Of a stretch of DNA of 64,000 nt, positions 25,651-64,000 are shown in pieces. Under the pieces are notes generated by a model that had not been told where the DNA came from, made no database searches, and saw only the letters and a program-made list of their open reading frames with translations. This DNA comes from a virus. Lineage: Duplodnaviria; Heunggongvirae; Uroviricota; Caudoviricetes. The stretch covers positions 51,528 through 115,527 of IMG/VR virus record IMGVR_UViG_3300031998_000026; one strand, written 5' to 3'. Made by a program: the position numbers and the translations under genes. Numbering within the stretch: the first letter of the stretch is position 1; every line of letters begins with the position of its first letter.

Positions 25651-26955
<1,305 letters not shown>

Positions 26956-44019: not shown

Positions 44020-44023
44020 CCAT

Positions 44024-44097
44024 TGGGGCGTAGCTCAGTCGGTATGAGCAGGGGCCTGTTAAGCCTCGTGTCGCTGGTTCGATCCCAGCCGTCCCAG
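44024..44097 (+). tRNA. tRNA-Asn (GTT); CCA encoded
   Basis: Acceptor TGGGGCG/CGTCCCA, anticodon loop CTGTTAA, T arm GCTGG-TTCGATC-CCAGC. Confidence 0.65.
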
Positions 44098-44101
44098 CCA
44101 T

Positions 44102-44173
44102 CGCGGAGTACAGTAGCGGTCACTGGCCGGATTCATGCTCCGGTGCACGTGGGTTCGAATCCCACCTCCGCCA
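44102..44173 (+). tRNA. tRNA-Met (CAT), elongator-type; CCA encoded
   Basis: Anticodon stem CCGGA/TCCGG with loop TTCATGC; T arm GTGGG-TTCGAAT-CCCAC; no GGG/CCC initiator stem signature. Confidence 0.6.
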
Positions 44174-44264
44174 CCAGACACATCCCGCCCCCTGAGGCGG
44201 TGGCCGTTGCGCGGGCCGGAAATCAGCGCCCTCTTGCGGAGTCAGGGGAACCCGCATGCACAAT

Positions 44265-44337
44265 GGGTCGTTAGCTCAGCTGGGAGAGCAGTTGGCTCTT
44301 AACCATCAGGTCCTGGGTTCGAGTCCCAGACGACCCA
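44265..44337 (+). tRNA. tRNA-Lys (CTT); CCA encoded
   Basis: Acceptor GGGTCGT/ACGACCC, anticodon loop CTCTTAA, T arm CTGGG-TTCGAGT-CCCAG. Confidence 0.65.
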
Positions 44338-44341
44338 CCAT

Positions 44342-44413
44342 ACTCCGTTAGCTCATCGGGTAGAGCAGTGGGCTTTTAACCCTCAGAGCAGAGTTCGAGC
44401 CTCTGGCGGAGTA
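44342..44413 (+). tRNA. tRNA-Lys (TTT); CCA encoded
   Basis: Acceptor ACTCCGT/GCGGAGT, anticodon loop CTTTTAA, T arm CAGAG-TTCGAGC-CTCTG. Confidence 0.65.
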
Positions 44414-44424
44414 CCAGGCAATAC

Positions 44425-44498
44425 GGAGTCCGTAGCACAACGGTTTAGTGCGCTGGGTTGTGGCCCCGGATACGAAGGTTCGACTCCTTTCGGACTCC
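44425..44498 (+). tRNA. tRNA-His (GTG) with G-1
   Basis: G-1 opposite C73, acceptor GAGTCCG/CGGACTC, anticodon loop TTGTGGC, T arm GAAGG-TTCGACT-CCTTT. Confidence 0.6.
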
Positions 44499-44505
44499 CA
44501 TCCAT

Positions 44506-44579
44506 TTCCCCGTAGTTCAATCCGGCAGAACGCCTGACTCTGGTTCAGGAGGTACCTTGTTCGACTCAAGGCGGGGAAG
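44506..44579 (+). tRNA. tRNA-Gln (CTG); CCA encoded
   Basis: Acceptor TTCCCCG/CGGGGAA, anticodon stem CCTGA/TCAGG with loop CTCTGGT, T arm CCTTG-TTCGACT-CAAGG. Confidence 0.65.
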
Positions 44580-44768
44580 CCAGAGAAATACCGCGCGATC
44601 GCACTAGTACCTGTCCGGAGGGGAAACTGCGACTGGGGCCAGCCACACTCTGAGCTCGCGCGTCCATACAGGAGGTCGTAGTAAAGGTGAATACGACGCG
44701 TTGCAACAGGGGGGACGCTTCCGCAACACGTAGATGCAAGGTTCGAGTCCTTGCCCTCCCAACCCAAC

Positions 44769-44840
44769 AGGCTCTTGGTGTCAAAGGAAGCACGCTGGTC
44801 TCCAAAACCAGAGGAGGGGGATCGATACCTCCAGGGCCTG
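44769..44840 (+). tRNA. tRNA-Trp (CCA); CCA encoded
   Basis: Acceptor AGGCTCT/AGGGCCT, anticodon stem CTGGT/ACCAG with loop CTCCAAA, T arm GGGGG-ATCGATA-CCTCC. Confidence 0.55.
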
Positions 44841-44908
44841 CCATAGAAGTCACTTGAGGGGCGTGGCCTTCGCGGCTGCGTCCCTCTTCCGTACGAAGGA
44901 AGGAGTCA

Positions 44909-47950: not shown

Positions 47951-49099
47951 TTACGCAAACCTACGCTTGCCGTTTGATTCCTGCTTCGTAGGGCGCTCCA
48001 CCTCGACGGCTTCGACGCCCTCCACAGGCATGAGTTCGGGATAGTTCGCCATCCCTACGTTCAGTATGTTTATCGCCGCGTTCACGTCGCGGTCGATGAC
48101 GGCCCCGCAGTCTGGGCACTCGTAAGTGCGCTCGGAGAGCGGCATGTCGCGTACGCACCCGCAGTTTGAGCACGTCTTACTGCTCGGGTACCAGCGGTCT
48201 ATCCTGCCGACCCTCGCCTTGTACTCGAACTGGCTCGCCATCGTCGCCAACGACGCATCGGCTATCGACTTCGCCAGCTTGTGGTTCGAGCGCATGCCCT
48301 TGACGTTGAGATCCTCCAAGAACACGACGCCGTACCTGCGCACGACGTCCGTCGTGGCCTTGTGGATGTAGTCCGCCCTCATGCATGCCGTGCGATACTG
48401 GAACTTGGCGAGCCTGTCCTTCGCCTTGCGCCAGTTCTTGGAACCCTTCTTCTTGCGCGACAGATCCCGCTGCAGGTGCCTCATACGCCTCTCGCGCCTC
48501 CGATACCAGCGAGGATTCTGGACCACCGTACCGTCCGAGAGCGCCATGAGTACGTGGCAACCGAGGTCGATGCCCACGGCGGCTTGGCTTTCGCCCGCCG
48601 TGTCCGGCACCTCGCACGAGATGGCCGCGAACCACATGTTCGCCCTCTTGGATACGGTCACGTTGTATATCTTGGTGCAGTCTTGGTATCTCAGCGGCTC
48701 TGCCATCTTCAGTGTGAGTCCCTTGGGCAACCTGAGGTACCTGCCTTCCACCCTGACGGCCGAGCCGTCGATGCGGAATGAGTCTCTAACGCCCTTCTTG
48801 TGGAACCTCGGGTGCTTCGTGTTGCCCCTGAAGAACGACTTGAACCCCTTGTCGAGATCCTGTATCGCCGCCTCTCCTATCCACTTGGAGTACTCGTACA
48901 TCCACGGGAACTCCGCCTTCTTGCGGGCGTTGAACTTCTTCTTTATCGAATAGTAGTTGTGTCTGACGCCGTTGTCGTAGTCCTCGTTCCACATGCCGAG
49001 GCAGAGGTTGTATGCCGTCCGAGAGAACCCGCAGCAACCCCTCAGATACGACTCCTGCACGTTGTTGGGATATATTCGCGTCTTGAACGTCCGATTCAT
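47951..49099 (-). CDS. tnpB: TnpB RNA-guided nuclease (RuvC plus Zn finger)
   Basis: N-terminus MNRTFKTRIYPN; RuvC-I AVGIDLG; RuvC-II VVFLEDLNVKGM; Zn finger CSNCGCV...CPDCG; RuvC-III DRDVNAAINI. Confidence 0.85.
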   Translation of the reverse strand: MNRTFKTRIYPNNVQESYLRGCCGFSRTAYNLCLGMWNEDYDNGVRHNYYSIKKKFNARKKAEFPWMYEYSKWIGEAAIQDLDKGFKSFFRGNTKHPRFHKKGVRDSFRIDGSAVRVEGRYLRLPKGLTLKMAEPLRYQDCTKIYNVTVSKRANMWFAAISCEVPDTAGESQAAVGIDLGCHVLMALSDGTVVQNPRWYRRRERRMRHLQRDLSRKKKGSKNWRKAKDRLAKFQYRTACMRADYIHKATTDVVRRYGVVFLEDLNVKGMRSNHKLAKSIADASLATMASQFEYKARVGRIDRWYPSSKTCSNCGCVRDMPLSERTYECPDCGAVIDRDVNAAINILNVGMANYPELMPVEGVEAVEVERPTKQESNGKRRFA

Positions 49100-49326
49100 C
49101 GTTGCTCCTCGAGCAACTCGTCGTCGAGCCTCCATTCTATTGTGTCCCTCACCTTCTCGAGCCTCAGGTATTCGGACACTGGCCTGTCGTACACGAACCG
49201 CACGTCGTAGTCCGAATCCTCGCTCGCAAAGCCCCAGCAGCGGCTCCCGGACTCGATTGCGAGCACCAGGTTGACGTTCTTCTCCCTCTCGACGGACTCG
49301 AGCTCACGGATTATTGTCTCACGCAT
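49096..49326 (-). CDS. Minimal nucleotidyltransferase (MNT-like) fragment
   Basis: LVLAIESGSRCWGFASEDSDYDVRFVY is a Pol-beta-type GS...DxD motif; only 76 aa; stop abuts the tnpB start. Confidence 0.45.
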   Translation of the reverse strand: MRETIIRELESVEREKNVNLVLAIESGSRCWGFASEDSDYDVRFVYDRPVSEYLRLEKVRDTIEWRLDDELLEEQR

Positions 49327-51746: not shown

Positions 51747-52016
51747 TTACCGCCTCACCCACATCGTGTCGGTCATGCAAAGCAGCCAGCCGACGTTCGC
51801 CTCGTACAGCATGGCGGCGTCGTATATGAGCTTCGCCTTCAGCGTCCTCGTGCCCTGCTCGTACTTGTAGAGCGACTGCTGCGACATGCCCAGCGCGTCG
51901 GCGGCTTCGGCGATGGTCAAGCCGGCGAACCTGCGCGCCTCAGAGAGCCTCCTTCCCACCTCGGCGTCGTACTCGTCTATCTCGGCCTTGCTTGCGCTGC
52001 CAGCATTGAAGTCCAT
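51747..52016 (-). CDS. XRE-family HTH regulator
   Basis: LSEARRFAGLTIAEAADALGMSQQSLYKYEQG. Confidence 0.6.
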   Translation of the reverse strand: MDFNAGSASKAEIDEYDAEVGRRLSEARRFAGLTIAEAADALGMSQQSLYKYEQGTRTLKAKLIYDAAMLYEANVGWLLCMTDTMWVRR

Positions 52017-52026
52017 TCCTGCCTCC

Positions 52027-52293
52027 CTACATCCTGCACGTCGGGTTGTGCACGGGGTCGATTATCGTCCAGCGGCTCTCCTCGTACAGCGTCCCGCCCG
52101 TTATCCACGCCGTCCAGTCACGGCACTCTCCGATTACCTCGTCGGGGTCGTCGGCCCACTCACGCTCCTCCTTCAGACCGTCCCACCACTCGCTGTTCAT
52201 GGTCCTGCGTGCGTCGTCGAGCTCCTCGAACGTGCCGCAGACCCTTACCTGCGTGCCCTCGTCGTCCTTGGTTATGCCAATCAGTGTGAACAT
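52027..52293 (-). CDS. Hypothetical protein
   Basis: 88 aa, acidic. Confidence 0.4.
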   Translation of the reverse strand: MFTLIGITKDDEGTQVRVCGTFEELDDARRTMNSEWWDGLKEEREWADDPDEVIGECRDWTAWITGGTLYEESRWTIIDPVHNPTCRM

Positions 52294-52300
52294 GTGTCTC

Positions 52301-52591
52301 CTAGCTCCTTGCCCCGTCGTTTTTCACGGCCTTCATCCCGACGAGCGCGGCGTCGAGCATCGACCCGACCATCACGTTGAGGTCGCTCCACGTCCTCGCA
52401 GACACGGCGAACGCCGTCCTGCCGTCATCGCACAGCATGTCGAACCTGAGCACGTCCCCGTCACGGTACCAGGCGCCGTTCCAGGTGCCGCCCTCGGCGT
52501 CGTGCAGAATGCCCTCGAGCTTGGAGGCGCAGAACCTTATCCACTGCCGGGCCTCTGTCGCCGTCATGTTTTGTCTCGTACCGTATGCCAT
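52301..52591 (-). CDS. Hypothetical protein
   Basis: 96 aa. Confidence 0.4.
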   Translation of the reverse strand: MAYGTRQNMTATEARQWIRFCASKLEGILHDAEGGTWNGAWYRDGDVLRFDMLCDDGRTAFAVSARTWSDLNVMVGSMLDAALVGMKAVKNDGARS

Positions 52592-52604
52592 GTCGCTCTC
52601 CTCC

Positions 52605-53003
52605 CTAAAGGGCTATCCCGAACTTGCCGCCGACCATGTCGAGCGTCTGTCTGTCGTATCCCTGCGCCTTGAGCACTGCGAGCGCGTCCCTCAGCGTGCC
52701 GTGCGTCAGGTCGAACTCGTGGTCCCACCGCTCGTCGGTCAGTATCTGCATGTCGAACACCCTGCACATGCCGTGCCCGAGGTCCTCGTAGCAGTATGCC
52801 AGCTGGTAGCCGAGCCCGTCGTGGCAGTCGTAGTAGGAAACCTCGCCCTCCTGCCACGGCCCGGTTGCCGACTGTCCCGTGCTGCCCTCGCAAGGTATGC
52901 ACTCGTGCCCCGTGGCTATCCACACGAGCCTCCTCATTTCCTCGCTGCTGTCCTGGTGTGCCATCTTCTCCTCGATGTATGCGTCCTCTGCCATGTTGTA
53001 CAT
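52605..53003 (-). CDS. Hypothetical protein
   Basis: RBS GGAGAGAAAGAGGG before MYNMAEDAY. Confidence 0.4.
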   Translation of the reverse strand: MYNMAEDAYIEEKMAHQDSSEEMRRLVWIATGHECIPCEGSTGQSATGPWQEGEVSYYDCHDGLGYQLAYCYEDLGHGMCRVFDMQILTDERWDHEFDLTHGTLRDALAVLKAQGYDRQTLDMVGGKFGIAL

Positions 53004-53049
53004 CTCGTACCCTCTTTCTCTCCGAATCTTTTTCCGATCGAACCCTTGC

Positions 53050-53541
53050 CTATGCCACCTCCGTCGTGACCCTCTTCCTCGGCAGCCTCCTCCCGTCCAG
53101 GTAGAGCCAGTCCTCGAGCTCGGCGATGCCGTCTGCCTTCTCCCACACGGTGCCGAAGTCGTCGTGCTCTGCACGGTACGGCTCGCCCCCGTCGCACCAT
53201 ATCGAGAGCACCGGTATGCCCTCCTGCACGCTCTGCGCCACGTGCGCGTCCCATATCAGCCCGCTTATGGGGACGAGGCAGTTCTCGAACCTGCCCTCCT
53301 CCTCCATGGGGACGTTGGCGTTCCTGTAGAAGCGTCCCTCGTAGTAGTAGACCCAACGGGGGAAGCGCTCGTATCGCTTGCCACCCCTCGGCCCCTTGGT
53401 CTCGGATATTCTGGTGCCCCACTCGTACGTGTAGCGGGTCTGCAGGACCTTCGGCCTGCTCCCGTCCATCATGAGGAACGTACGCCGCCTGTTGCTGTGC
53501 CTCTTCGGCGTGTACGGAAGCCTCGGTACCTTGTATCCCAT
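53050..53541 (-). CDS. Hypothetical protein
   Basis: 163 aa. Confidence 0.4.
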   Translation of the reverse strand: MGYKVPRLPYTPKRHSNRRRTFLMMDGSRPKVLQTRYTYEWGTRISETKGPRGGKRYERFPRWVYYYEGRFYRNANVPMEEEGRFENCLVPISGLIWDAHVAQSVQEGIPVLSIWCDGGEPYRAEHDDFGTVWEKADGIAELEDWLYLDGRRLPRKRVTTEVA

Positions 53542-53627
53542 GCTGGTCTCCTCTCTCCTCGTCAAATGCCCAGCAGAAAGGGCGCCCCTTCCGAGGTGCC
53601 CTTCCGTGACGGGTATTCGTCGTGTCG

Positions 53628-54023
53628 CTAGTCCTGCAACCCGAAGCTCAGGTAGCGTCCCATGCGATCCTCGTCCACCACGTCCATCGAGGCGTACCCT
53701 GCGAGCGTGTCGCACTGCTCGTCCGTGAGCACGTGGCCCGACGCCGCCGCCGACTCTCGCATCTGTGCCCTTGTGAAGGTGAAGGTGTAGGTCTTGTCGG
53801 TCTCGCGCTCCTCGTCGTACGACTGCAGGGACAGGTGGCAGTCTCCGTCGGGCCCCCAGTCCTCGTCGCTGACCGAGTCGTTAAGCGGTGATACGATTTC
53901 GTCCACGGGCAGTATGTCGTAGTCGCCATTGCCGTCGTAGTGCCAAAGCTCAACACCCTGCTTGAGCAGGTGGCGAGGCATCTTGTCCAGCACGTCCATC
54001 AGTTCCAGCCAAGTCATTGCCAT
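53628..54023 (-). CDS. Hypothetical acidic protein
   Basis: 131 aa. Confidence 0.4.
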   Translation of the reverse strand: MAMTWLELMDVLDKMPRHLLKQGVELWHYDGNGDYDILPVDEIVSPLNDSVSDEDWGPDGDCHLSLQSYDEERETDKTYTFTFTRAQMRESAAASGHVLTDEQCDTLAGYASMDVVDEDRMGRYLSFGLQD

Positions 54024-54037
54024 GTCCTTCTCCTCTC

Positions 54038-54304
54038 CTAGACCGCGTACTCCTTGACGAACGCCTTGAGCGGCATGTACTCGTCGGCGTCCCCGTAGTT
54101 GTGCTCCTCGTCCAGGCGGACGAGGAAGTCCGTCTTGTTCATGCACTTGTACGACTGCCTGCACTCGTACAGCTTCTTCTTGATTTGCCTTCCGGCCTTG
54201 TCCATGCCCTCCCAGCAGCGCCTCGTTGGTTTGGCGTCGTCCGTGAACCTGGACACCCTCTTGTACGTGCCGCAGTCGATGGGTCGCACTATCGTTACTC
54301 TCAT
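54038..54304 (-). CDS. Hypothetical protein
   Basis: 88 aa; AAGGAGG RBS. Confidence 0.45.
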   Translation of the reverse strand: MRVTIVRPIDCGTYKRVSRFTDDAKPTRRCWEGMDKAGRQIKKKLYECRQSYKCMNKTDFLVRLDEEHNYGDADEYMPLKAFVKEYAV

Positions 54305-54365
54305 TGCTCCTCCTTAAAACGAAGGCACCCGCAGGTGCCCATCCAAACCTCTGTCGTGTCGCTAG

Positions 54366-54599
54366 CTAGGCCAACGGGTATTGTCCAGGCTCCACCTCCT
54401 TGTATGGGTGCAACTCGATGTTCTCGAGCAGCCAGTCTGTCTGCAGGTGGTCCTTGAGTGCGACGCAGTGATCGGCGAAGAAGTCCTCGTCACCATAGAG
54501 CCGCTTCTCCAGCTTCTCGATTGCCTCCTCCATCGTGTCGGCTTCTACCTCGTACGTCCTCCAGAGTGCCATCTGCGTGTCGATTGCGAACCTTGCCAT
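54366..54599 (-). CDS. Hypothetical protein
   Basis: 77 aa. Confidence 0.4.
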   Translation of the reverse strand: MARFAIDTQMALWRTYEVEADTMEEAIEKLEKRLYGDEDFFADHCVALKDHLQTDWLLENIELHPYKEVEPGQYPLA

Positions 54600-54601
54600 T
54601 G

Positions 54602-54772
54602 CTAGTCCTCCTCTTTCTCTTCCTTCTCGTTAATCTCGATTACGAAGTAGCCGACCACGAAGTAAGACCCACAGTCGTCGCACTCGTACTCCTCGTACTC
54701 TGGGAAGCTGCCCATGCAGCTCGCCTGCCCGCCACATACGGGGCAGTCCCCGTAGAACTCGATTGGTTTCAT
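54602..54772 (-). CDS. Small Zn-ribbon protein
   Basis: CPVCGG...CDDCG. Confidence 0.35.
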   Translation of the reverse strand: MKPIEFYGDCPVCGGQASCMGSFPEYEEYECDDCGSYFVVGYFVIEINEKEEKEED

Positions 54773-54774
54773 GT

Positions 54775-55062
54775 CTAGTCCTCCTTGAAGTTCTCGTCCT
54801 CGTACCTGCTTGCCAGCAGCGACCCGAACAGGTACCCGAACCCGTCGTTCCACGCGTCGTCGTAGAAGTCCTGATTGCTTATGACCCACGCCATGAGGTC
54901 CGTCAGGTCGTCGCCACGCATGACGTTCGTTATGTCGGATGCCGCCCTGTCCCAGCACTCGTCTGGGTTGTAGAAGCTGTACCAGAGGCTCACGTCCTCC
55001 TTCTCGAGGATGCGCTCATAAACTTTGTCTGCCAGTTCCTCGCCGTGCTTTGCGTCGAACAT
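54775..55062 (-). CDS. Hypothetical acidic protein
   Basis: 95 aa. Confidence 0.35.
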   Translation of the reverse strand: MFDAKHGEELADKVYERILEKEDVSLWYSFYNPDECWDRAASDITNVMRGDDLTDLMAWVISNQDFYDDAWNDGFGYLFGSLLASRYEDENFKED

Positions 55063-55556
55063 CAGAACTCCCTCCAATTGTCTCCTGCGTAGTACTTGAC
55101 CGCCCTTCTCGCATACCCCATGCAGGCGTCGAGCATGAAGCACTCGTATCCGTCGCAGAGGTCCGGCCCCTCGCCTTGGGTCGCCGCTTCGGCGTACCCT
55201 CTGAACATGAGGGAGAAGGTCTCGTATGCCGTGCGGTTCGTTGCGTCCTCGCATTTGCCCTCCTCGGCGTACGCCGTCCTCGCAACGAGCATGCACAGCG
55301 CCTCCGCTATCGCATGGTCGGGCGTCGCACTCGTCCATGTCTCGACCGCCGCTCCGTCTGGGTCCTCTATCTCGGCGAACCACAGGCCATCCGCATGCCC
55401 GACGATCATGGTGTAGCTGCCCATCTCGTCGTCGTACTCGAAGCGCCCGTGCCTTGCGGGCCTGTCGGTGTCGTAGCACGGGCCGCCTGCGAAGTAGCCG
55501 TGCTCGTCCATCCAATCCCTCGTGGCTGGCGTCATGTCGGTGAAGTTTATCCTCAT
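55062..55556 (-). CDS. Hypothetical protein
   Basis: 164 aa. Confidence 0.4.
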   Translation of the reverse strand: MRINFTDMTPATRDWMDEHGYFAGGPCYDTDRPARHGRFEYDDEMGSYTMIVGHADGLWFAEIEDPDGAAVETWTSATPDHAIAEALCMLVARTAYAEEGKCEDATNRTAYETFSLMFRGYAEAATQGEGPDLCDGYECFMLDACMGYARRAVKYYAGDNWREF

Positions 55557-55939
55557 GCCAAGTCCCCCTTTATCATGCAGTTCACCTTCGTCATGCTTGC
55601 GAATATGTCCACGCCCTCGCACTGCATGACCTCCTCCCACAGCTCGCCGAACGTGCCGCAGTCGTAGCCGTCACCGGCGATGCGATAGAGGTCCTCGAAC
55701 CCTATCTCGTCCTCGATGCAGTCTCGGCTGCGCTTGTAGCCCGTCCACAGGCCGTCGCCGTACTGGTACGGTTCGTCTGGGCTGTAGTGGATGCCGAGGC
55801 ACCCGAGGTATCCCTCGTCGTACTCAACGTCGTCGTCCTCCCAGTACAGATGCAGCGAGAATATCTCCTCGCCGTTGTAGAACAGCCCCTCGTCCTCGTC
55901 GGGGGCCGTGGTTGGGTCGTATTTGGTCGGCTTCATCAT
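55553..55939 (-). CDS. Hypothetical acidic protein
   Basis: 128 aa. Confidence 0.4.
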   Translation of the reverse strand: MMKPTKYDPTTAPDEDEGLFYNGEEIFSLHLYWEDDDVEYDEGYLGCLGIHYSPDEPYQYGDGLWTGYKRSRDCIEDEIGFEDLYRIAGDGYDCGTFGELWEEVMQCEGVDIFASMTKVNCMIKGDLA

Positions 55940-55952
55940 GTCCTGCCTCCTC

Positions 55953-56522
55953 CTACTTGTAGTCGTCCTGCTCGCTTATGATTTCCTCGACCTCGCTTGC
56001 GTCGAGGGTTATGTCTGCGTACCCATCTTCGTCGCTGTCGCATACGACGTCTGAGAGGAATGCGTTCGACCCGCTGTCTGCGAACACCTTGCCGAGCAGC
56101 TCGTGCAGCCTGTCGGTGTCGGCTACGATGGTCTCCGCCAGGTAGTTCGCCTCCTTCTCACTCTTGGCTCTGAAGTAGATGCTCAATGGCACCATGATGT
56201 GCGCTATGTAGGGCTTGCGCTCGGTGGGGGAGTCGGGCACCTCATGGATGACCCACCTGTGCTCGCCGTCCTCCAGGTATGCGTCGAAGTCGTGGAGGAA
56301 CCCGAGGTACACTTTGCCGCCACCCTCGCCGGCCCAGTCACCGTAGAGGTCATAACGTCCCGGCGCGCACTCGACCTTCCTCGAGATGCTGTAGTCGTCA
56401 TCGGCGAGGATGCGCTCAAGCTGGCCCAACATGACCGCATGCGCCTTCTCTGCGCTGTCGTATGCCCTGCACTCGTTGTCAGTGCTCAGGCTGTTTCCCT
56501 CGCTGTAAACCAATACGAACAT
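55953..56522 (-). CDS. Hypothetical protein
   Basis: 189 aa. Confidence 0.45.
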   Translation of the reverse strand: MFVLVYSEGNSLSTDNECRAYDSAEKAHAVMLGQLERILADDDYSISRKVECAPGRYDLYGDWAGEGGGKVYLGFLHDFDAYLEDGEHRWVIHEVPDSPTERKPYIAHIMVPLSIYFRAKSEKEANYLAETIVADTDRLHELLGKVFADSGSNAFLSDVVCDSDEDGYADITLDASEVEEIISEQDDYK

Positions 56523-56525
56523 GTC

Positions 56526-56864
56526 TTACTCCTCCTCGAATCGGCACCAGTAGGTGCCCTCTTTTGTCTCCTCGTTTACCTCGTTGAGCGGCAGGTGCGT
56601 GCCCGGCTCGCCGTCGTAGTACTCGTTGACGAAGTCCCTTATCCCTTCGTCCGCAAGCTCCTCCCAGTAGTGCGTGACCGCACACTGGGCCGCATCGAGT
56701 TCGCTTGCGCTGTACGAGGACACGGGCACGACGGCGCTCATCTCCTCGTGCACCCAGTAGCCCTCGTCGTGCAGCCACAGGAACCCGAGAAGGTGCACGA
56801 CCTTCTCGCCGTTGCGGACCTCCACCGAGTAGAAGTCACGCTCGTAGTCAGTGTTGAAGCACAT
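56526..56864 (-). CDS. Hypothetical protein
   Basis: 112 aa. Confidence 0.4.
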   Translation of the reverse strand: MCFNTDYERDFYSVEVRNGEKVVHLLGFLWLHDEGYWVHEEMSAVVPVSSYSASELDAAQCAVTHYWEELADEGIRDFVNEYYDGEPGTHLPLNEVNEETKEGTYWCRFEEE

Positions 56865-56867
56865 GCC

Positions 56868-57071
56868 TTACTCCTCCTCGTCCTCGTCGATTACGTTGTC
56901 CAAGAAGTAGTTGAACACCAGCGTGTGGTCGCACTCCGGGCAGTAGTTGATGAGCTGTACGCCTCCGTCCATGAACTCGAGCTCGTCGTAGCCGTCGAGG
57001 TCTGCGCCGCACGTCGGGCAACGGCTGTCGTCGCCGCTCTTGTATTTCTTCCCCATGGTGTACTCCTTCAT
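56868..57071 (-). CDS. Small Zn-ribbon protein
   Basis: CPTCG...CPECD. Confidence 0.4.
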   Translation of the reverse strand: MKEYTMGKKYKSGDDSRCPTCGADLDGYDELEFMDGGVQLINYCPECDHTLVFNYFLDNVIDEDEEE

Positions 57072-57074
57072 GTC

Positions 57075-57335
57075 TTACTCCTCTCCGCCGACGTACTCGG
57101 CAATCTCTTCCTTGGTGAGCGTGACCTCACCGTCCACCTTCCATGCACAGCACCCGCCGTTGACCATGCACTCGTGCTCCTCGTACTCGGCGAGGTCGAC
57201 GACCTTGCACTCGAAGTCCTCGCTGTCGATGAGCTCGTTGGCTATGCGCTCTGCCTCCTCCACCGAGTCGGTCTCGACCGTCTCGTAGTGGTAGTAGGTT
57301 TCCACTTTCTTGAAACACAGTTCGTAGTGCGCCAT
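57075..57335 (-). CDS. Hypothetical acidic protein
   Basis: 86 aa. Confidence 0.35.
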   Translation of the reverse strand: MAHYELCFKKVETYYHYETVETDSVEEAERIANELIDSEDFECKVVDLAEYEEHECMVNGGCCAWKVDGEVTLTKEEIAEYVGGEE

Positions 57336-57577
57336 TACTCGTTTCCCTCCCAGTCGTGCAATCCGATTTCCAAGTACTCGCCATCGGCGCACTCACTGGC
57401 GTTGATGCCGCACACCTCGTAGCCGAGCAGGTCGCTGCTCAGCTCCTCGATGTCCCCGTTTACGTGGCAACCGTCGTGGTAGACCTCCGGCGCTGCGCCA
57501 CAGGCGAATACGTTCGCCCTCGTGAACCCCACGGGTCCGTAGATATCCATGCTGTTTATGAGCTGTCCGAGTGTCAT
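57335..57577 (-). CDS. Hypothetical protein
   Basis: 80 aa. Confidence 0.35.
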   Translation of the reverse strand: MTLGQLINSMDIYGPVGFTRANVFACGAAPEVYHDGCHVNGDIEELSSDLLGYEVCGINASECADGEYLEIGLHDWEGNE

Positions 57578-57581
57578 TGCC

Positions 57582-57917
57582 TTACTCCTCTCCGTATTCC
57601 TCGCACTCGGCGAAGAACTTGTCCGTGAACTCGTACAGTGGGTACGTGCAGTACCCGCTCGGCATCTCGATGCCAGTGGGGTGGGCGAGTCCGTTGCTCT
57701 CCAGGAACTCTGTCGCCCAAGGGCAATTGTTCGTGTCGACGAACGCATGGCGCTCGTCTCCCGTTCCGAGGTTCACCGTGAGCGTCGCCCACGGCTCCCA
57801 GTCTCCGAATCCGTTCGCAATCATCTCGACGGCCAGCGAGCCGTCGTAGTAGCTGCCACGGACGAGGCAGGCGTCCATGGTGTCTCCGTATTGGTCTGTG
57901 TACTTGTAGGTTGCCAT
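57582..57917 (-). CDS. Hypothetical protein
   Basis: 111 aa. Confidence 0.4.
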   Translation of the reverse strand: MATYKYTDQYGDTMDACLVRGSYYDGSLAVEMIANGFGDWEPWATLTVNLGTGDERHAFVDTNNCPWATEFLESNGLAHPTGIEMPSGYCTYPLYEFTDKFFAECEEYGEE

Positions 57918-57931
57918 GCTCGTTCTCCTCT

Positions 57932-58312
57932 CTAAACCTGCCACCATCCGTCGACGGTGCGTACCAGCGTCTCGTCGTGCCATTCGTTCGGCATGCTCTC
58001 GAAGCCGAGAGCCTTGGCGAGGCGGAAGAACTTGTATGCCGAAGGCGCCCACTTCCTTCGTGGGTTCCAGCGGTGGTATGCGATGGGGTGTCGGTGCGCA
58101 ACCTCGCATGCAATCTCTGCGACGGCGCCGAACAGGTCCATCGCAAGCCCGTGCCACTCGTGCTCATCTATTGCCAAGTAGTACTGTGCCTTGGCAAACA
58201 CCTTGCGGGCGGCGGGGGAGTGACGAAGGACGTACAGCTCGTCCTCGAACTCCGCTTGGTCGACCCTCGCAAGCTCCGCCTTGGTGAAGTCGTGCATCTT
58301 CCAGAAACCCAT
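57932..58312 (-). CDS. Hypothetical protein
   Basis: 126 aa. Confidence 0.4.
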   Translation of the reverse strand: MGFWKMHDFTKAELARVDQAEFEDELYVLRHSPAARKVFAKAQYYLAIDEHEWHGLAMDLFGAVAEIACEVAHRHPIAYHRWNPRRKWAPSAYKFFRLAKALGFESMPNEWHDETLVRTVDGWWQV

Positions 58313-58324
58313 GTGTCTTCCTCT

Positions 58325-58537
58325 CTATCGGTTGCTCTCGATGACTCGTGCCGTCTCCTTTATCGCGAAGTCGACGATTGCGTCCATCAGGTGGTCGTTC
58401 CAGTAACCAAGGTTGTCCTCGACCCATTCGAGAATCTCGTCCTCGTCCATCTCAAGCAGGTCTGCCACCGCACTTACGGGAAACCACACTCCGCCCTCGC
58501 AGAGTCCCATCGTGCTGTCTCTCCTGTCGATTACCAT
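58325..58537 (-). CDS. Hypothetical small protein
   Basis: AAAGGAGAA RBS before MVIDRR. Confidence 0.35.
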   Translation of the reverse strand: MVIDRRDSTMGLCEGGVWFPVSAVADLLEMDEDEILEWVEDNLGYWNDHLMDAIVDFAIKETARVIESNR

Positions 58538-58655
58538 GCTTGTTCTCCTTTCGAACGCATGTTCCATTGTCCCATCCTTACGGGACAACATTTCGGCAAG
58601 TGCCGCCATCGGGGGGAGCACCTCCACGGATGCTCCCCATAGGTGGGGGCGCTCG

Positions 58656-58961
58656 CTAACGAATCTCTTCGAGCTTCTCGTCGACATACCTGCTCTCCAT
58701 GTCGTGGATGGTGTCTACCATGAGCATCCACTCCCTCGAATGCTTCTCGTAGAACCACTTCTGGAAGTCGGGTATGTCGTACTCGTCGCGAGTCGCCCCC
58801 ATCCGTGCGACGATGTTGAGCTTGCGCTCCAGGTCGTCAACATCCTCAACATCCATGGGTCTTGCGGAGCCGTCGACGATCCGCTCGAACTCGGCAGGCA
58901 TGAAGTCGCCTGCGTTTATCTCGATGTCGAGCCAGTTGTTCTTTACCTTCGAAAGTGCCAT
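58656..58961 (-). CDS. Hypothetical protein
   Basis: 101 aa. Confidence 0.4.
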   Translation of the reverse strand: MALSKVKNNWLDIEINAGDFMPAEFERIVDGSARPMDVEDVDDLERKLNIVARMGATRDEYDIPDFQKWFYEKHSREWMLMVDTIHDMESRYVDEKLEEIR

Positions 58962-58981
58962 GCTCTCCTCCTCCAAGCTCG

Positions 58982-59341
58982 TTAGAAAAGAAAGTCCTCT
59001 TCGTAAGCCATCTCTATGCCCATCCAAGGTCTCTCGTAACGGATTACTATCGCGGTTAGCTCGCTTGGGTGGTCCTTGCACTCGACGTGCACGAAGCCCC
59101 TTCCCTCTAGGGCCGCCTTCCACTCGTTGCGACACACGTCCCTCGACTGGAGCGCAAGGCCTCTGTCGAACTCAAGCCCGTGCCTCTCGGCGAACACTTC
59201 GAGAGGATTCAGGTTCACCTGCAGGTATCGCGTCCAACACCCGTCGTCAACGCGCTCGTCCTCGGCGAACCTCGTCGCCACCTTTCTCGACCACTCCTCG
59301 ACCTCGTCGAGGAGCATCGCCAACCTCATTCGATCGGTCAT
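58982..59341 (-). CDS. Hypothetical protein
   Basis: 119 aa. Confidence 0.4.
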   Translation of the reverse strand: MTDRMRLAMLLDEVEEWSRKVATRFAEDERVDDGCWTRYLQVNLNPLEVFAERHGLEFDRGLALQSRDVCRNEWKAALEGRGFVHVECKDHPSELTAIVIRYERPWMGIEMAYEEDFLF

Positions 59342-59353
59342 GTCCTACCTCCT

Positions 59354-59641
59354 TCAAAGACCGAGGACGCCACCATTGACGCCATCGTTGTACCTATCGA
59401 CCCTTCGCACGAACCTCTCGTGCCGAAGGTCTATCCTGCAGACCGTGCGACCGTGCCTGTAGACCATGACCAGCACGGCGCCCATGTCCCTCACGGCAGA
59501 CTCGACGAACCTCTCTAGCTCGTCCCTGCTCTCGACGTGTGCCGTCGCCCTTCCGCGTCCCCTCCTTCCGAACGTGCACGCCTCGCAGCCGTTGCTTGGC
59601 GAACGAACTACCTCCGGGTACTGTCTGAACAGCTCGTCCAT
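59354..59641 (-). CDS. Hypothetical protein
   Basis: 95 aa. Confidence 0.35.
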   Translation of the reverse strand: MDELFRQYPEVVRSPSNGCEACTFGRRGRGRATAHVESRDELERFVESAVRDMGAVLVMVYRHGRTVCRIDLRHERFVRRVDRYNDGVNGGVLGL

Positions 59642-59714
59642 GCGCTCTCCCTTCGTCGACCAGTGCGCATCCCAAGGGGCACCGCACGGGTGCCCCGCAG
59701 GACGGGTACTGTGC

Positions 59715-60158
59715 CTACTCGTGCCAGTTGAATCCCATCGCGTCGTAAAGGCTGGTGAAGTGCGTGTCCCTGAAGCCGTAGCCGCAACCGTCCACGGCGA
59801 GGGCATAGAGCTCGTCATTGTGCATGACGAGCGTGAACCCGCATTCTGCAACCTCTCTCAGGTGCTCGTAGCACCAGCGCCAAACGAAGCTGTCGGGAAC
59901 GAACCACGTGTTCCACATCGGCGCCCCTGTCGTGGTGTCCGCCGAGCAGGTGTATGCGAGCCCGTCCATCTCGTCGTACCAGCTCACCTCGTCTGGGCTG
60001 ACGTCGTGCTCCTCGGGGTCGAAGCTCCCGACGAAGCTCCAGACCTCGAACCAGTCGGGCAGCTCCGTTATGAGCGTGCTGTCGATGCCGTCGAAGCACT
60101 CGTCCATGAACAGGCCGACGCACTCCTCTTTCGTCTCGTACTTGCGGATGATTGCCAT
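59715..60158 (-). CDS. Hypothetical protein
   Basis: 147 aa. Confidence 0.45.
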   Translation of the reverse strand: MAIIRKYETKEECVGLFMDECFDGIDSTLITELPDWFEVWSFVGSFDPEEHDVSPDEVSWYDEMDGLAYTCSADTTTGAPMWNTWFVPDSFVWRWCYEHLREVAECGFTLVMHNDELYALAVDGCGYGFRDTHFTSLYDAMGFNWHE

Positions 60159-60210
60159 GCGCTCTCCCTTCGTAAGACGGGCGCCAACGAGCGGCGCCCG
60201 TCGCTTGCGG

Positions 60211-60456
60211 CTATTCCTTCGTCGGCACCTGCTCCAGCAGGTCGACGTAGCGGTCCAGCTTCATGAGGACCTTGTGGACGTCGTGGTTGGCGTTGTTGCG
60301 GCGTGCGAGCATCTCTGCCTTCGACTCGTCGCGTTCGAGCATGTACATCTCGTGCGTATGCTCCATCCGCCCCCTGCTCTCCCTGTAGAGGGCGTCGATC
60401 ATGTGAACGAGCTTGTCGTACTTCTCCTCGATGGTCATTGGCTCGTCGTAATACAT
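60211..60456 (-). CDS. Hypothetical protein
   Basis: 81 aa. Confidence 0.4.
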   Translation of the reverse strand: MYYDEPMTIEEKYDKLVHMIDALYRESRGRMEHTHEMYMLERDESKAEMLARRNNANHDVHKVLMKLDRYVDLLEQVPTKE

Positions 60457-60525
60457 TCGCTATGTCCTCTCTGCTATGCGGGGCGTCCCTCGTGGACGCC
60501 CCGACAACTGACTTCCTGGCGTGTG

Positions 60526-60972
60526 CTACTCGCCGCACATGGCCGCACAATCTGCCTCGAACACCTCGAGGTTTCGCATGGACTCCCTCAAGACCTCAAG
60601 CGGGCGCTCCGACTCGTCCCACTCGAACACCGGTGCGACGTACTCCAAAAACGATGCGGTCGTCATGTGCGGCACGGTGCGGTCGTATGCCACACCCTCT
60701 TCCATGTCGCCGCTCGTGAGGTAGGTGTCGTAATGGCTCAGTAGCGCAGCCCCGAGCCTCACGGCATCGTCATGCGGAAGCTCGTTGGCCTTGCGGAAGA
60801 ACATGTACTCGGGGCGAGCCATGCGGTAGAAGCCCATCTCGATGAACGAGTCGGGCGGCACGGGACCGTCGTAGACGGTCACCTTGCGGACGTTGGCACC
60901 CGCCTCGGTCGCCCTCTCTGCCATTTCCTTTGCGCACTCGGGTGCGGCAAGAATCTCTACGCTGTCAAACAT
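60526..60972 (-). CDS. Hypothetical protein
   Basis: 148 aa. Confidence 0.45.
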   Translation of the reverse strand: MFDSVEILAAPECAKEMAERATEAGANVRKVTVYDGPVPPDSFIEMGFYRMARPEYMFFRKANELPHDDAVRLGAALLSHYDTYLTSGDMEEGVAYDRTVPHMTTASFLEYVAPVFEWDESERPLEVLRESMRNLEVFEADCAAMCGE

Positions 60973-61039
60973 TTGTTTGTCCTCTCTAAGACGCGGGGCG
61001 CCCCTCGTAGGCGCCCCTTCGTTACCTTTCGCTCGTTCC

Positions 61040-61831
61040 TTATGCGATTGCGACCAAGTCCTCCGCCGAGACCAGCTCTCCCTCCTCCCATGCCTCGATG
61101 GCGTCGTATACCTCGTCGCACATGGGGCCGTAGACCATGCACGAGCCGATGTGCTTGCACTTCCCGCAGCACAGGTCGAACACGTCGTCGTACTCGGGAC
61201 CGTATGCGGGGTAGTCGAACCCGTCGTAGTACTCGTCCTCGTAGTCGTAGAGGTCGGCGTACGTCCAGCGCCACGTGGAGTTGGACGCCTGTATGCCCTC
61301 GGTCACGGTCTCCCAGCCGTCGCCGACTCGATACACGCTGCCGTCCTTCGTCATGACCGCGAAGCGGTTGCCCGGCGCTATCTCCCTCATGCGGCGCTTC
61401 ATGTTCTTGGTCACCTTGCCCTCGTACAGCTCGGTCATGTACTCGGACACGAACGTGACCGTGTCGGACACGCCAAGCTCGTCGTTGGTCGGCATGTTCT
61501 TTATGACGCCGTTGTGTGCCACGGCGACGTCGCACTCGACGTCTGGGGCGTGGAGCACGTCGAGGTCTCGGCACACGGGGAAGGGGTGGCACGTGCCCAC
61601 GTTGATGCCGCCGCTCGTCGCTATCCTCATGTGGATTACGAGCTGCGAGTCGATGGGCGTCGACTCGATGGCCTGTATGAGCTGCGGTGCGCTCATGAAT
61701 CCCTTCGATATCTGGACTCGTCCGTCCTCAACCCACATGATGCCAGCGCCGTCGGGGTTGCCGAGGAAGCAGCTCTCGACGAGGTCGTGGGTGGGACGGA
61801 CGTTCTTCTCGCAGGTGAGGATGATGCACAT
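61040..61831 (-). CDS. Class-II (Ntn) glutamine amidotransferase-like protein
   Basis: N-terminal MCIIL (Cys2 nucleophile); YafJ/GATase-II-like fold; adjacent to the amidoligase. Confidence 0.5.
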   Translation of the reverse strand: MCIILTCEKNVRPTHDLVESCFLGNPDGAGIMWVEDGRVQISKGFMSAPQLIQAIESTPIDSQLVIHMRIATSGGINVGTCHPFPVCRDLDVLHAPDVECDVAVAHNGVIKNMPTNDELGVSDTVTFVSEYMTELYEGKVTKNMKRRMREIAPGNRFAVMTKDGSVYRVGDGWETVTEGIQASNSTWRWTYADLYDYEDEYYDGFDYPAYGPEYDDVFDLCCGKCKHIGSCMVYGPMCDEVYDAIEAWEEGELVSAEDLVAIA

Positions 61832-61877
61832 AACAAGTTTCCTTTCGTTTGGCTTTTCTTTTGTTCTGATTCGTTAC

Positions 61878-63392
61878 TTAGAGGCCGCGGCGCTCGATGT
61901 AGGCGTCGAGGTCGTCGTGGGGGAGACCCTGCTCTTCAAGGGCGAACCTGACGAGCACCTTGACCATGCTCCACGTGAGCTGGTCGGCGAACTCGTCCGT
62001 CATGGTGTTGGCGATGATTGCCAGCCCAGTCGTCATCTCGACGGTGGCTCGGAAGGTCTCCATGTTGAGGGTGCCGCGCCACAGTCGGATCTCGACGGTG
62101 GCGAAGTTCGTGTCGTTGACCGCCTCGTAGCGGCCGGCGAACTTCTTCTTGTCCTCCCAGACCTTCTTGCGCTCGGCGACGTCTGGGATGTCGTGCAGGT
62201 CGTCCTCGCCGATGCGGCACCACTCCATCGAGCGCTCGGTTCGACGTGAGAAGTTGACCAGCTGACCCTCGAAGCGATGGAACAGGCGGTCTAGCCTGTA
62301 CACGGCGTCGTGGTCGACGAAGAAGCCCCTCGACAGGTGGACGTGGAGGCCGCAGGTGCAGGCGTCGTGGGACTTGCCGCCGTGGTCCCTCACTATCTGG
62401 GAGATGCGCTCCCACATGCCGCTCGTGAGGTGCACCTCGGGGGTCATGGGCTGGGACACTATCTCGAGCCCGTTGTCGTGCAGGGAGCCGTCCCTCTTGC
62501 ACTCCACGTGCTCTTCGTCGTACTCGTCAGCGATGTCGTTGGCAAGTGCCGCACGGTCGTCGTTCTGGTCGGTCTCAAGCTCGATTCCGAGGAAGAGTGT
62601 CTTCTTGTACTCGTCCCCTAGCTCCCAGCCGTACTTCTTCAGGTCGGACTTGAGCCAGAACGTCGTCCCGTCGGTGTGTCCGTACTCGTGGACGTTTCCG
62701 CCGTGCTCTTCGTAGCAGTCCGGGCAGTAGGGTTCGTCCCACTCGTCCCACTCGGCGTCGTCCAAGGGGACGAGGTCGCCACAGTGGCTGCACGTGCTGT
62801 AGTGGTCGTCTACGCAGCCGTCGCACAGCTGCTGGTAACCCTGCGAGTAGACGCTGTAATCGCTTATTATGCCGCTGTCAACGGAGAACAGGTCCCCGCA
62901 GCAGTCGCACTGGATTGCGTCGCGGTCCACGCATTCCTCGCACCACCCCTCGGACTCGTATCCGCGCCAGTAGGAGCCGCCGACGTACACCTCGGTCAGC
63001 AAGGTGTGGTACGTCTCGCAGCGCTCGCAGTATTCCGCATGGTCGTCCTTGCATTCCTCGCACCACACCTCGGTGGTGCCGTTGTCGCCCTCGACCTCGA
63101 AGGCGCAGTCCTCCTCGACCACCTGGCCGCAGTGGTCGCAGGTGACCGCGTGCGTCTCGACGCAGGCGGGGCACCAGTCCTCGTGGCTTCCGCGCCATCC
63201 GTCTACCAGCACCTCGGTCGCCTCGCCCTCGTGCCAGTCGCCGCAGTGCTCGCACTCGTAGGCGTCGTTCTCGGTGCACTCTTGGCACCATTCCTGCAGG
63301 GTGCCGTCCTTCGCGTAGACCAAGTCGAGGACGTCGTCCTCGACGACCTGACCGCAGTGCTCGCATACGTGCTTACCGTTCTTGTCTATCAT
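61878..63392 (-). CDS. Amidoligase-family enzyme (glutamine-synthetase-like) with six N-terminal Zn-ribbon repeats
   Basis: Six repeats of about 37 aa, each C(E/D)HCG...WCxEC; C-terminal FLGIELETD, KRDGSL, GLEIVSQP, CGLHVHL resemble the Amidoligase_2 family. Confidence 0.55.
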   Translation of the reverse strand: MIDKNGKHVCEHCGQVVEDDVLDLVYAKDGTLQEWCQECTENDAYECEHCGDWHEGEATEVLVDGWRGSHEDWCPACVETHAVTCDHCGQVVEEDCAFEVEGDNGTTEVWCEECKDDHAEYCERCETYHTLLTEVYVGGSYWRGYESEGWCEECVDRDAIQCDCCGDLFSVDSGIISDYSVYSQGYQQLCDGCVDDHYSTCSHCGDLVPLDDAEWDEWDEPYCPDCYEEHGGNVHEYGHTDGTTFWLKSDLKKYGWELGDEYKKTLFLGIELETDQNDDRAALANDIADEYDEEHVECKRDGSLHDNGLEIVSQPMTPEVHLTSGMWERISQIVRDHGGKSHDACTCGLHVHLSRGFFVDHDAVYRLDRLFHRFEGQLVNFSRRTERSMEWCRIGEDDLHDIPDVAERKKVWEDKKKFAGRYEAVNDTNFATVEIRLWRGTLNMETFRATVEMTTGLAIIANTMTDEFADQLTWSMVKVLVRFALEEQGLPHDDLDAYIERRGL

Positions 63393-63475
63393 TTTTCGTC
63401 CCTTCTAAGACGTGGGGCGCCCTCGCAAGGACGCCCCGATTTACAGGTATCTGAAAATTGATGGGTAAAAAATTT

Positions 63476-63814
63476 TCATGCGCTCCAGACGTATTCGCTC
63501 TCGCTGAGGAGCTTGAGCAGGGCGGCGTTCGTCTCCTCCTCGGAGTACGAACGGAGGAACGGGACTGATTCGTTGTTGTAGGCGACGGGGAAGTCCCCGA
63601 TGTACTCGATGTACTCGTCGGGGATGTATCCAAACTCGTCATAATCGTCGTACCAGTCCTCGATGACCTGTGCCACCGACCACTCGGTCAGGCCCCTGCG
63701 GATGAAGAGGTTCGGATACGTAACCTCACCTGCCTGCAACATCTCCATGCCCGTGTCCTCGCCGTACTCGCCGTACTGCGGGACGAGGCTCGTGTAGACC
63801 TTGGTTTCGTTCAT
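63476..63814 (-). CDS. Hypothetical acidic protein
   Basis: GGAGG RBS; 112 aa. Confidence 0.4.
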   Translation of the reverse strand: MNETKVYTSLVPQYGEYGEDTGMEMLQAGEVTYPNLFIRRGLTEWSVAQVIEDWYDDYDEFGYIPDEYIEYIGDFPVAYNNESVPFLRSYSEEETNAALLKLLSESEYVWSA

Positions 63815-63827
63815 TGCTACCTCCTTA

Positions 63828-64000
63828 TTAGCAGAACGTGAACGTCGTGCCGTTCGGCACGAACACCACGTCGGATTTGATCTCAGGGGCGTACTCGCAG
63901 CGGGAGTGCAGGAACTTGACGCCGTTCCATCCCATCTCATCCCTCTGCTCGTCGGTGAGCGGCTTCTCCATCCAGTACATGCGCCCCTTGACACCTTCCC
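63828..64000 (-). CDS. Hypothetical protein, C-terminal fragment; the start lies beyond the window end
   Basis: Open frame to the window edge ending ...VVFVPNGTTFTFC*. Confidence 0.3.
   Translation of the reverse strand, partial: EGVKGRMYWMEKPLTDEQRDEMGWNGVKFLHSRCEYAPEIKSDVVFVPNGTTFTFC

Follow-up and report, generated by a model that had tools for sequence, protein, structure and literature searches.

Pairs of an Amidoligase_2 enzyme and an amidotransferase were reportedly predicted in phages by Iyer et al. in 2009, and such pairs, in which the amidotransferase belongs to class II, are by now known from phiEco32, LUZ24/tf, RIO-1-type, OM43 and Marvin-type phages. In phiEco32, LUZ24/tf/PaP3, RIO-1/PSA-HP1 and the OM43 phages MEP401/402, the same two families occur together in early regions. 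Several of these cassettes are larger and encode, besides a longer amidotransferase of ~486 amino acids (aa), an ATP-grasp enzyme, a gamma-glutamyl cyclotransferase and a second ligase (PF14395). Other phage Amidoligase_2 genes are paired with a gamma-glutamyl cyclotransferase instead of, or alongside, the amidotransferase (PMC11318856, PMC5498523). For the phiEco32, LUZ24 and RIO-1-type cassettes, a function in small-molecule metabolism or at the cell envelope has been hypothesized (PMC5498523, PMC10580990, PMC11706807). In the literature on these phage pairs, we found no member with a tested substrate, and proposals up to 2025 amount to guesswork. Here, we analyzed a stretch of 64,000 nucleotides (nt) from a Caudoviricetes virus (IMG/VR record IMGVR_UViG_3300031998_000026, positions 51,528 to 115,527; referred to below as the window), which carries a pair of the same two families in a reduced form. 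The window cassette consists of two genes only, a ligase with six zinc fingers and a short partner ending in a Cys4 cluster, and the gene set of the phiEco32/RIO-1 cassettes was not found with it. Both window proteins gave weak matches in MEP401/402.

The ligase gene (61878..63392, minus strand) encodes 504 aa plus stop, starting with a zinc-finger array that is followed by the Amidoligase_2 core. It is separated by a 46-nt spacer (61832..61877, minus strand), harboring a AAAGGAAA ribosome-binding site, from the partner gene (61040..61831, minus strand), which encodes 263 aa plus stop and represents a stand-alone, class II glutamine-amidotransferase-like protein of the cysteine N-terminal-nucleophile (Cys-Ntn) amidohydrolase type. 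A plausible purine-rich ribosome-binding site precedes each of the two genes. A preliminary description of the locus had given the same coordinates for both open reading frames (ORFs), to which we add the strand. That they are genuine genes and not chance ORFs is confirmed, as judged from sequence conservation, because we recovered at least 816 clusters of ligase relatives and at least 561 clusters of partner relatives from a large protein database, and because the cysteines of the last three array modules and the catalytic residues are invariant in the alignments.

We first consider the core of the ligase (aa 263-504; 61881..62606, minus strand), as delimited by the ligase alignment (A2, 67 sequences), Foldseek and PF12224. 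The motifs by which the preliminary description had assigned the protein to the amidoligases are indeed present, FLGIELE at aa 266-272, KRDGSL at 299-304, GLEIVSQP at 308-315 and CGLHVHL at 347-353. Pfam Amidoligase_2 (PF12224) is matched by 64 of the 67 aligned sequences, with a best E value of 6e-15. The top library match of the window ligase is phrog_16683 (3e-33), whose function is unassigned, and two PHROGs labeled "amidoligase" match it at ~1e-5. A profile search against solved structures left the Amidoligase_2 core unmatched and returned only LIM-like matches, which fell on the array. The AlphaFold2 (AF2) model of the ligase reached a predicted local distance difference test (pLDDT) score of 91.9, and Foldseek placed its core closest to YbdK (8e-7), followed by glutamine synthetases (~1e-4), a plant glutamate-cysteine ligase (1e-3) and Dop (5e-3). 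The best of these matches are distant, at 13-14% identity. YbdK, a GCS2-type ligase for which we also obtained a weak NCBIfam match, is thus the best solved structural match, but it shares only about 13% identity with the window ligase and has neither a zinc array nor an amidohydrolase partner. Throughout the 67 sequences, G269, E271, E273, D301, E310, C347, H350, H352, R383, R384, N426, E434 and R436 are invariant. We infer that this set of acidic, histidine and arginine residues is what would be expected of a metal-ATP site of the glutamine synthetase type, the residues being mapped onto glutamine synthetase sites without superposition. Given the PF12224 matches of the relatives, the fold matches of the model and this invariant set, the safe part of our interpretation is that the first gene encodes a predicted ATP-dependent carboxylate-amine ligase of the glutamine synthetase fold, belonging to the Amidoligase_2 family.

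The partner begins with MCIIL, which had led to the proposal of a Cys2 Ntn nucleophile as in class II glutamine amidotransferases. This proposal held up well. Among the 120 best relatives, on which all family-wide counts of the MC start and of the array modules given here are based, 119 start with MC, and the single exception has an internal MCIIL downstream of a probably miscalled start. C2, N25, P26, G28, G30, H106, N107, G108, S122, S183 and N184 are invariant in the partner family, and R69 and D123 are nearly so. The Ntn-hydrolase domain (aa 2-190; 61262..61828, minus strand), which contains the C2 nucleophile, R69, N107-G108 and D123, was delimited by alignment, hhalign and Foldseek. When aligned by hhalign with the glutaminase domain of Escherichia coli GlmS, HMRIATSG corresponds to HTRWATHG, placing R69 on R73, and AHNG corresponds to VHNG, placing N107-G108 on the oxyanion pair N98-G99; D123, located in an SDT motif, was equated with the glutamine-pocket aspartate (D123) by the motif only. 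The AF2 model of the partner (pLDDT 88) matched GFAT/GlmS (6e-7), the gamma-glutamyl amidohydrolase EgtC (4e-5) and PurF (8e-5), so that structure prediction recovered the expected fold for both proteins. Precomputed Pfam matches were found in none of the 561 partner relatives, and only 24 of the 72 relatives tested directly had a Pfam match at an E value of ≤0.01, the best family being GATase_4. By its sequence, the partner is a divergent class II amidotransferase-like subfamily that lies below Pfam detection. Nevertheless, the MC start, the conserved pocket residues, the alignment with GlmS and the fold matches to GlmS, EgtC and PurF allow us to say with some safety that the second gene encodes a predicted Cys-Ntn amidohydrolase, with a pocket suited to free glutamine or to a gamma-glutamyl head group.

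Downstream of its catalytic domain, the partner has a low-complexity linker rich in Trp, Tyr, Asp and Glu (aa 186-220; 61172..61276, minus strand), which is disordered in the AF2 model (pLDDT of <50 at aa 191-205). Such a tail is 29-86 aa long in paired relatives. It leads into a helical C-terminal mini-domain (61043..61171, minus strand; helices within aa 212-262) with a Cys4 cluster formed by C222, C225, C231 and C238 (CxxCx5Cx6C), which may hold Zn or Fe-S. These cysteines are nearly invariant in the partner alignment (A1). The Cys4 knot is confined to the subfamily of the window partner, and more distant amidotransferase-like partners lack it.

The two genes belong together. In every related locus with sequence available at that place, a Cys-Ntn gene was found directly downstream of the ligase gene, which bears out the earlier suggestion of an amidoligase/amidotransferase pair. 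These are the metagenome and viral loci L001-L005, L007-L013 and L017, a podovirus record (L015) and mycobacteriophage Marvin (L018). According to the called gene coordinates, the two genes are separated elsewhere by anything from an overlap to ~170 nt, mostly by about 0-76 nt, and by ~630 nt in L009. No third gene was conserved across the 17 related loci L001-L017. The identities to the window ligase and the window partner, respectively, were 61/76, 48/58, 48/56, 48/53, 38/42, 38/40, 30/32 and 28/26%, that is, the two proteins diverge in parallel as a unit. The carriers are varied: HK97-like temperate siphoviruses, a phage with a P22-type portal, a podovirus encoding an RNA polymerase, and large contigs of virulent appearance. 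One relative pair came from an Atopobiaceae metagenome-assembled genome. In the prophage L011/L017, the stretch between the packaging and the early modules has the cassette as its sole plus-strand unit, a moron-like position. Because of this constant adjacency, the lack of a conserved third gene, the parallel divergence and the variety of carriers, the pair is, to judge from the comparison of loci, a self-contained and horizontally mobile two-gene accessory cassette of phages. Its neighbors elsewhere include ArdC-N/MPTase-PolyVal, DUF4313, PcfJ, DUF2958 and DUF2786 proteins; families of this kind typically occur in early-entry regions of mobile elements. No near-identical DNA was found in cultured phages, a pattern scan of representative bacterial genomes for prophage copies found none, and the PADLOC models matched neither the ligase, nor the partner, nor three neighbors. 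A DNA hypermodification pathway was also considered and judged unlikely, since the cassette moves alone among unrelated phages without conserved partner enzymes.

The most distinctive part of the cassette is the array at the N terminus of the ligase (six tandem C4 zinc-finger modules, aa 10-226; 62715..63365, minus strand), which is defined by the CxxC positions, a DNA repeat family (D1) and the secondary structure assigned by DSSP to the AF2 model. Twelve CxxC motifs, at aa 10, 36, 47, 74, 85, 111, 122, 151, 162, 190, 201 and 223, form six CxxC-x22-26-CxxC modules, one starting every 37-40 aa. The preliminary description, which counted six CxxC...WCxxC modules of ~37 aa, was correct as to number and period, but the Trp ahead of the second CxxC is present only in modules 1 to 4. 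At the DNA level, the repeat is seen at 62897-63298 as four copies of 57 nt, spaced by 111-120 nt and 63-74% identical. In the AF2 model, each module consists of a knuckle and a beta-hairpin followed by a helix that opens at the second CxxC (aa 37-43, 75-81, 112-118, 152-158, 191-197 and 224-230). The family profile matches the LIM domains of CRP (E = 0.008), and of the 67 aligned relatives, 6 match Pfam LIM (up to 1e-11) and 6 others match the double zinc ribbon family DZR. Since the second CxxC sits at the N terminus of a helix and since LIM profiles are matched, the modules are probably LIM- or treble-clef-like C4 fingers as modeled, and not the classical zinc ribbons they had been called. 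The likeness to LIM and treble-clef fingers lies in the CxxC...CxxC spacing and in the second pair at the helix N terminus. However, two residues separate the modules of a LIM domain, whereas seven do so in the window array, in which all ligands are cysteines.

The array is not the unusual addition for which it had been taken, as all 120 best relatives carry about 2 to 7 modules. Most have 3 to 5, and the six of the window lie in the upper tenth. The last three modules are universal among the aligned relatives and their cysteines are invariant, the variation being N-terminal. The array is also strongly acidic, with a net charge of −53 over 230 aa. In the 120 relatives, the mean charge per residue is −0.17 in the array and −0.05 in the core. 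Given this strong acidity and its conservation across relatives, the binding of nucleic acid, which the preliminary description had envisaged, appears unlikely. Moreover, the array evolves faster than the rest of the protein, with a pairwise identity of 31% among relatives (non-Cys positions) compared to 60% in the core. Finally, it is found outside the ligases: a HMMER search of the whole library with the array alone retrieved 238 representatives, and in a single-sequence phmmer search, the ligase core remained undetected in 47 of 133 new array representatives. These core-less proteins include stand-alone arrays and proteins with uncharacterized N-terminal domains, some of which match phrog_6980 or phrog_18912, two PHROGs of unknown function. 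Their arrays are acidic as well (mean of −0.15 in 38 sampled proteins). On the basis of its acidity, its 2 to 7 modules, its fast evolution and its portability, we read the array as a targeting module that would behave as an evolving, portable macromolecular interface, serving as a docking site or as a decoy for a basic host target.

As a side observation, the array occupies the C terminus of at least two other uncharacterized phage protein families (P0312, P0313, P0343, P0345 and P0348; P0269, P0357 and P0382). One array-bearing family has an N terminus of the type "DWKAREx-F-SGEY-VPW," and another matches phrog_6980. The stand-alone arrays are 100-260 aa long. BFVD and UniProt already contain array-bearing relatives, labeled "Amidoligase enzyme" or "LIM domain containing protein."

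The substrate, the direction of the chemistry and the biological role of the cassette we infer as follows. Tentatively, we favor a write/erase pair of the gamma-glutamyl type acting on a macromolecular host target that would be recruited by the array. The acidic array would dock the ligase onto a basic macromolecular host target other than nucleic acid, or act as a decoy for it. The ligase would convert a carboxylate to an acyl-phosphate and then couple it with an amine, thereby putting a gamma-glutamyl-type group on a target amine such as a protein lysine. The partner would hydrolyze gamma-glutamyl amides and could thus edit, reverse or recycle the mark. The cassette as a whole may act in host takeover, counter-defense or superinfection exclusion. 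We favor this reading because the partner is a stand-alone protein closest to GATase_4 and EgtC, while the class II enzymes that channel ammonia are fusions; to our knowledge, all characterized ones are fused to a synthase domain. In addition, a gamma-glutamyl cyclotransferase replaces or accompanies the amidotransferase in other phages, and the array looks like an evolving interface. By analogy, the cleavage of a gamma-glutamyl amide would be the only thing that the cyclotransferase and the Ntn partner share. A ligase combined with a stand-alone Ntn hydrolase is also found in mycobacterial ergothioneine synthesis, where the gamma-glutamyl ligase EgtA has a glutamine synthetase fold and EgtC, a stand-alone class II-like hydrolase, removes the gamma-glutamyl group. 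EgtA/EgtC nevertheless differ from the window pair in that they belong to a metabolic pathway with intervening enzymes, lack a zinc array and are not a mobile phage cassette; the identity is ~17%.

Several observations speak against the write/erase reading. If ligase and hydrolase acted on one and the same bond, the result would be a futile cycle, unless the two were kept apart in time or by target or the hydrolase had another amide as its substrate, and the retained glutamine pocket would, as far as its residues go, fit an ammonia donor equally well. Pfam support for the two window proteins is weak: the ligase reaches 22.6 bits with Amidoligase_2, marginally above the cut-off of 22, and the partner remains below the gathering thresholds of GATase_4 (20 bits versus 23) and GATase_6 (16 bits versus 27). 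The profile check suggested in the preliminary description was thus passed by the ligase and not by the partner; the profiles did not fail for both proteins, and the N-terminal cysteine is conserved in the homologs. As for the array, its acidity is extreme but not unique in an acidic early operon. Indeed, the cassette lies inside a run of more than 30 small ORFs on the same strand (window about 52000-64000, minus strand; L016 1-14350), whose mean charge is −0.10 per residue, with several ORFs below −0.18 and many Glu-rich tails, compared to about −0.03 for the replication genes. The array could also be merely a scaffold or an oligomerization device. No Pfam family was found in the other domains fused to it, hence no informative fusion, and long ligase relatives (P0074, P0083, P0012 and others) screened for informative fusions contained Amidoligase_2 only. 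Lastly, we considered that the array might bind the tail of the partner as LIM domains bind peptides, and rejected this idea, as module number and linker length did not correlate in 33 cognate pairs (Spearman 0.03, p = 0.88).

The retained pocket leads to the main alternative, a two-subunit glutamine-dependent amidotransferase, in which the partner glutaminase would feed ammonia to the ligase, which would in turn amidate an ATP-activated carboxylate (−0.98 Da), for instance a Glu or Asp side chain, a C terminus or a cell wall precursor. We regard this as possible, though rather doubtful. All the glutaminase residues (C2, R69, N107-G108 and D123) are retained, the genes are tightly coupled in most loci, and their products co-diverge as a unit. 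Furthermore, the ligase core matches glutamine synthetases in fold, and enzymes of this fold classically use ammonia as the nucleophile. However, the known class II amidotransferases GlmS, PurF, AsnB and GltS channel ammonia within one polypeptide, separate glutaminase subunits being a feature of class I, whereas the window partner, with its 263 aa, has a gene of its own downstream of that of the ligase and is not fused to a synthase domain. The order of ligase and hydrolase is also opposite to that of the fused enzymes, the best family is of the stand-alone GATase_4 type with EgtC as a close structural match, and the gamma-glutamyl cyclotransferase that serves as the partner in other phages cannot donate ammonia.

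That the cassette modifies a small molecule or the cell envelope, in line with the published hypotheses for related cassettes cited above (PMC5498523, PMC10580990, PMC11706807), is in our view unlikely. Here, the product would be a gamma-glutamyl metabolite, a polyamine conjugate or a peptidoglycan stem peptide that blocks superinfection or alters metabolism, and the array would be a scaffold. The moron-like position in a prophage would suit expression during lysogeny, and an acidic array could attract polyamine-like cations. On the other hand, the window cassette is devoid of ATP-grasp, PF14395 and cyclotransferase genes, no third gene is conserved, neither protein sequence shows obvious envelope targeting, and a fast-evolving, copy-variable and portable array is more typical of a macromolecular interface. 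The window cassette also resides in an early operon with no lysogeny module visible nearby.

With still less conviction, we consider a variant in which the array would be a DNA-mimic-like decoy capturing host proteins that are basic and bind DNA, for example nucleoid proteins, restriction enzymes or other enzymes of defense. The ligase would then gamma-glutamylate or amidate the captured proteins and the partner would spare or recycle off-targets, in the manner of a "catalytic Ocr." If this were true, the cassette would be an enzymatic antidefense weapon, and the same portable array would arm other, uncharacterized phage domains.

A Pup-like tagging system, which comes closest to the peptide tags proposed in the preliminary description, is very improbable. 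In such a system, a small protein would be conjugated by the ligase, via its C-terminal Glu, to lysines of the target, and the partner would take the role of Dop in deamidating a C-terminal Gln. PafA, Dop and Pup resemble the window pair in combining a ligase of the glutamine synthetase fold, which forms a gamma-glutamyl-lysine isopeptide, with an amidase step. The window ligase has Dop among its structural matches, and the next ORF downstream of the cassette (60526-60972, minus strand) ends in ...CGE. However, this ORF is kept only in the closest relative, L001, at 34% identity, and neither a tag gene nor any other small gene accompanies the cassette across loci. Moreover, Dop is a paralog of PafA that needs the Pup tag and is not an Ntn hydrolase, whereas the partner has the Ntn fold and not that of Dop/PafA. 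Finally, an ATP-burning Glu/Gln cycle or a toxic module of the abortive infection type is hardly credible, for although a glutamine synthetase-like ligase and a glutaminase are formally futile together and a moron-like copy occurs in a prophage, no defense system model was matched, the cassette is carried by many phage types, among them an apparently lytic phage that has it in its early operon, and the elaborate, variable array would be left unexplained.

The 5' leader of the ligase gene (63393..63460, minus strand) is predicted to form two hairpins, a GC-rich one of 10 bp (63414-63437) followed by a small one over the GAAGGGA ribosome-binding site (RNA fold of −28.8 kcal/mol, z = −4.0). In L001, L002, L010 and L011, too, the ligase gene is preceded by GC-rich stems, whose sequences differ. 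The GC hairpin has no T-run and was hence not called by our terminator scan, and the promoter and terminator scan around the cassette gave nothing beyond shuffled expectation. The leader hairpins might serve as terminators lacking a U-tract, as processing sites or in the control of translation.

Within the 117.8-kb contig, a distance of 2.8 kb separates the cassette from the contig end. The run of small ORFs around it has almost no database matches, the neighbors of the cassette have no PHROG match, and one ORF of the run (57582-57917) is a DUF4313 protein. The run resembles an early host takeover or antidefense region. No integrase or lysogeny module was visible near the window cassette, and the contig looks like that of a large virulent phage. 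This phage is novel and far from any cultured one. Elsewhere in the window, we noted a RecE-like exonuclease paired with a RecT-like annealase, as well as a sliding clamp encoded by the phage (7624-9573 and 19224-20306, plus strand). The nearest cultured relatives of the clamp, from phages of Mycobacterium and Arthrobacter, are less than 30% identical to it. Two HEARO RNAs (Rfam RF02033) were detected on the plus strand, at 25415-25622 and 11167-11376 (176 and 142 bits, respectively). The former lies at the start of a 462-aa HNH ORF (25567-26955, plus strand; phrog_2214) in the replication module, and the two together resemble the combination of an IscB-type nuclease and its guide RNA. The latter is not followed by a long HNH ORF and may be a solo or decayed copy. 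A 394-aa IS605 OrfB/TnpB-like transposase gene (47951-49135, minus strand; phrog_506, 6e-110) is located exactly at the plus-to-minus switch of gene orientation and GC skew. Next to a cluster of eight tRNA genes lie those of RtcB-type and ATP-dependent RNA ligases (35933-38504 and 43947-44843, plus strand), and an additional tRNA-Arg is found at 2613-2688 (plus strand). The ligases and tRNAs look like a tRNA repair and replacement kit directed against anticodon nucleases.

Among cultured phages, the counterpart of the window cassette is the gp105/gp106 pair of Marvin, shared by Tesla, MosMoris and other phages of cluster S. It has the same order of ligase and Cys-Ntn gene, near the genome end. 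The Marvin ligase has CxxC motifs at its N terminus as well as an acidic stretch, the Marvin partner starts with MCIL and has a Cys-rich C terminus, and the Tesla homolog of gp105 is a structural match to the window ligase. The Marvin pair differs in that its partner is only ~25% identical, its ligase has 3-4 CxxC motifs versus twelve, and this ligase carries a long C-terminal extension. Both Marvin genes (record positions 61626-63966) are annotated as "glutamine amidotransferase domain protein." The gp105 motifs GVELEV, GVEIVSHP and YGYHIHV are of the amidoligase-core type. The annotation of gp105 looks like an error that has spread through the cluster S phages, the Ntn partner being gp106.

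What our analysis adds to the pairs already described is thus a minimal two-gene form, a divergent partner subfamily that is invisible to Pfam, an array characterized as acidic, copy-variable, fast-evolving and portable, and a tractable cultured counterpart in Marvin gp105/gp106. The minimal form is abundant, with its at least 816 ligase and at least 561 partner clusters. Since the Marvin pair is cultured and genetically tractable, the old question of what these cassettes do is directly testable, and the answer could reveal a new covalent chemistry by which phages modify their hosts.

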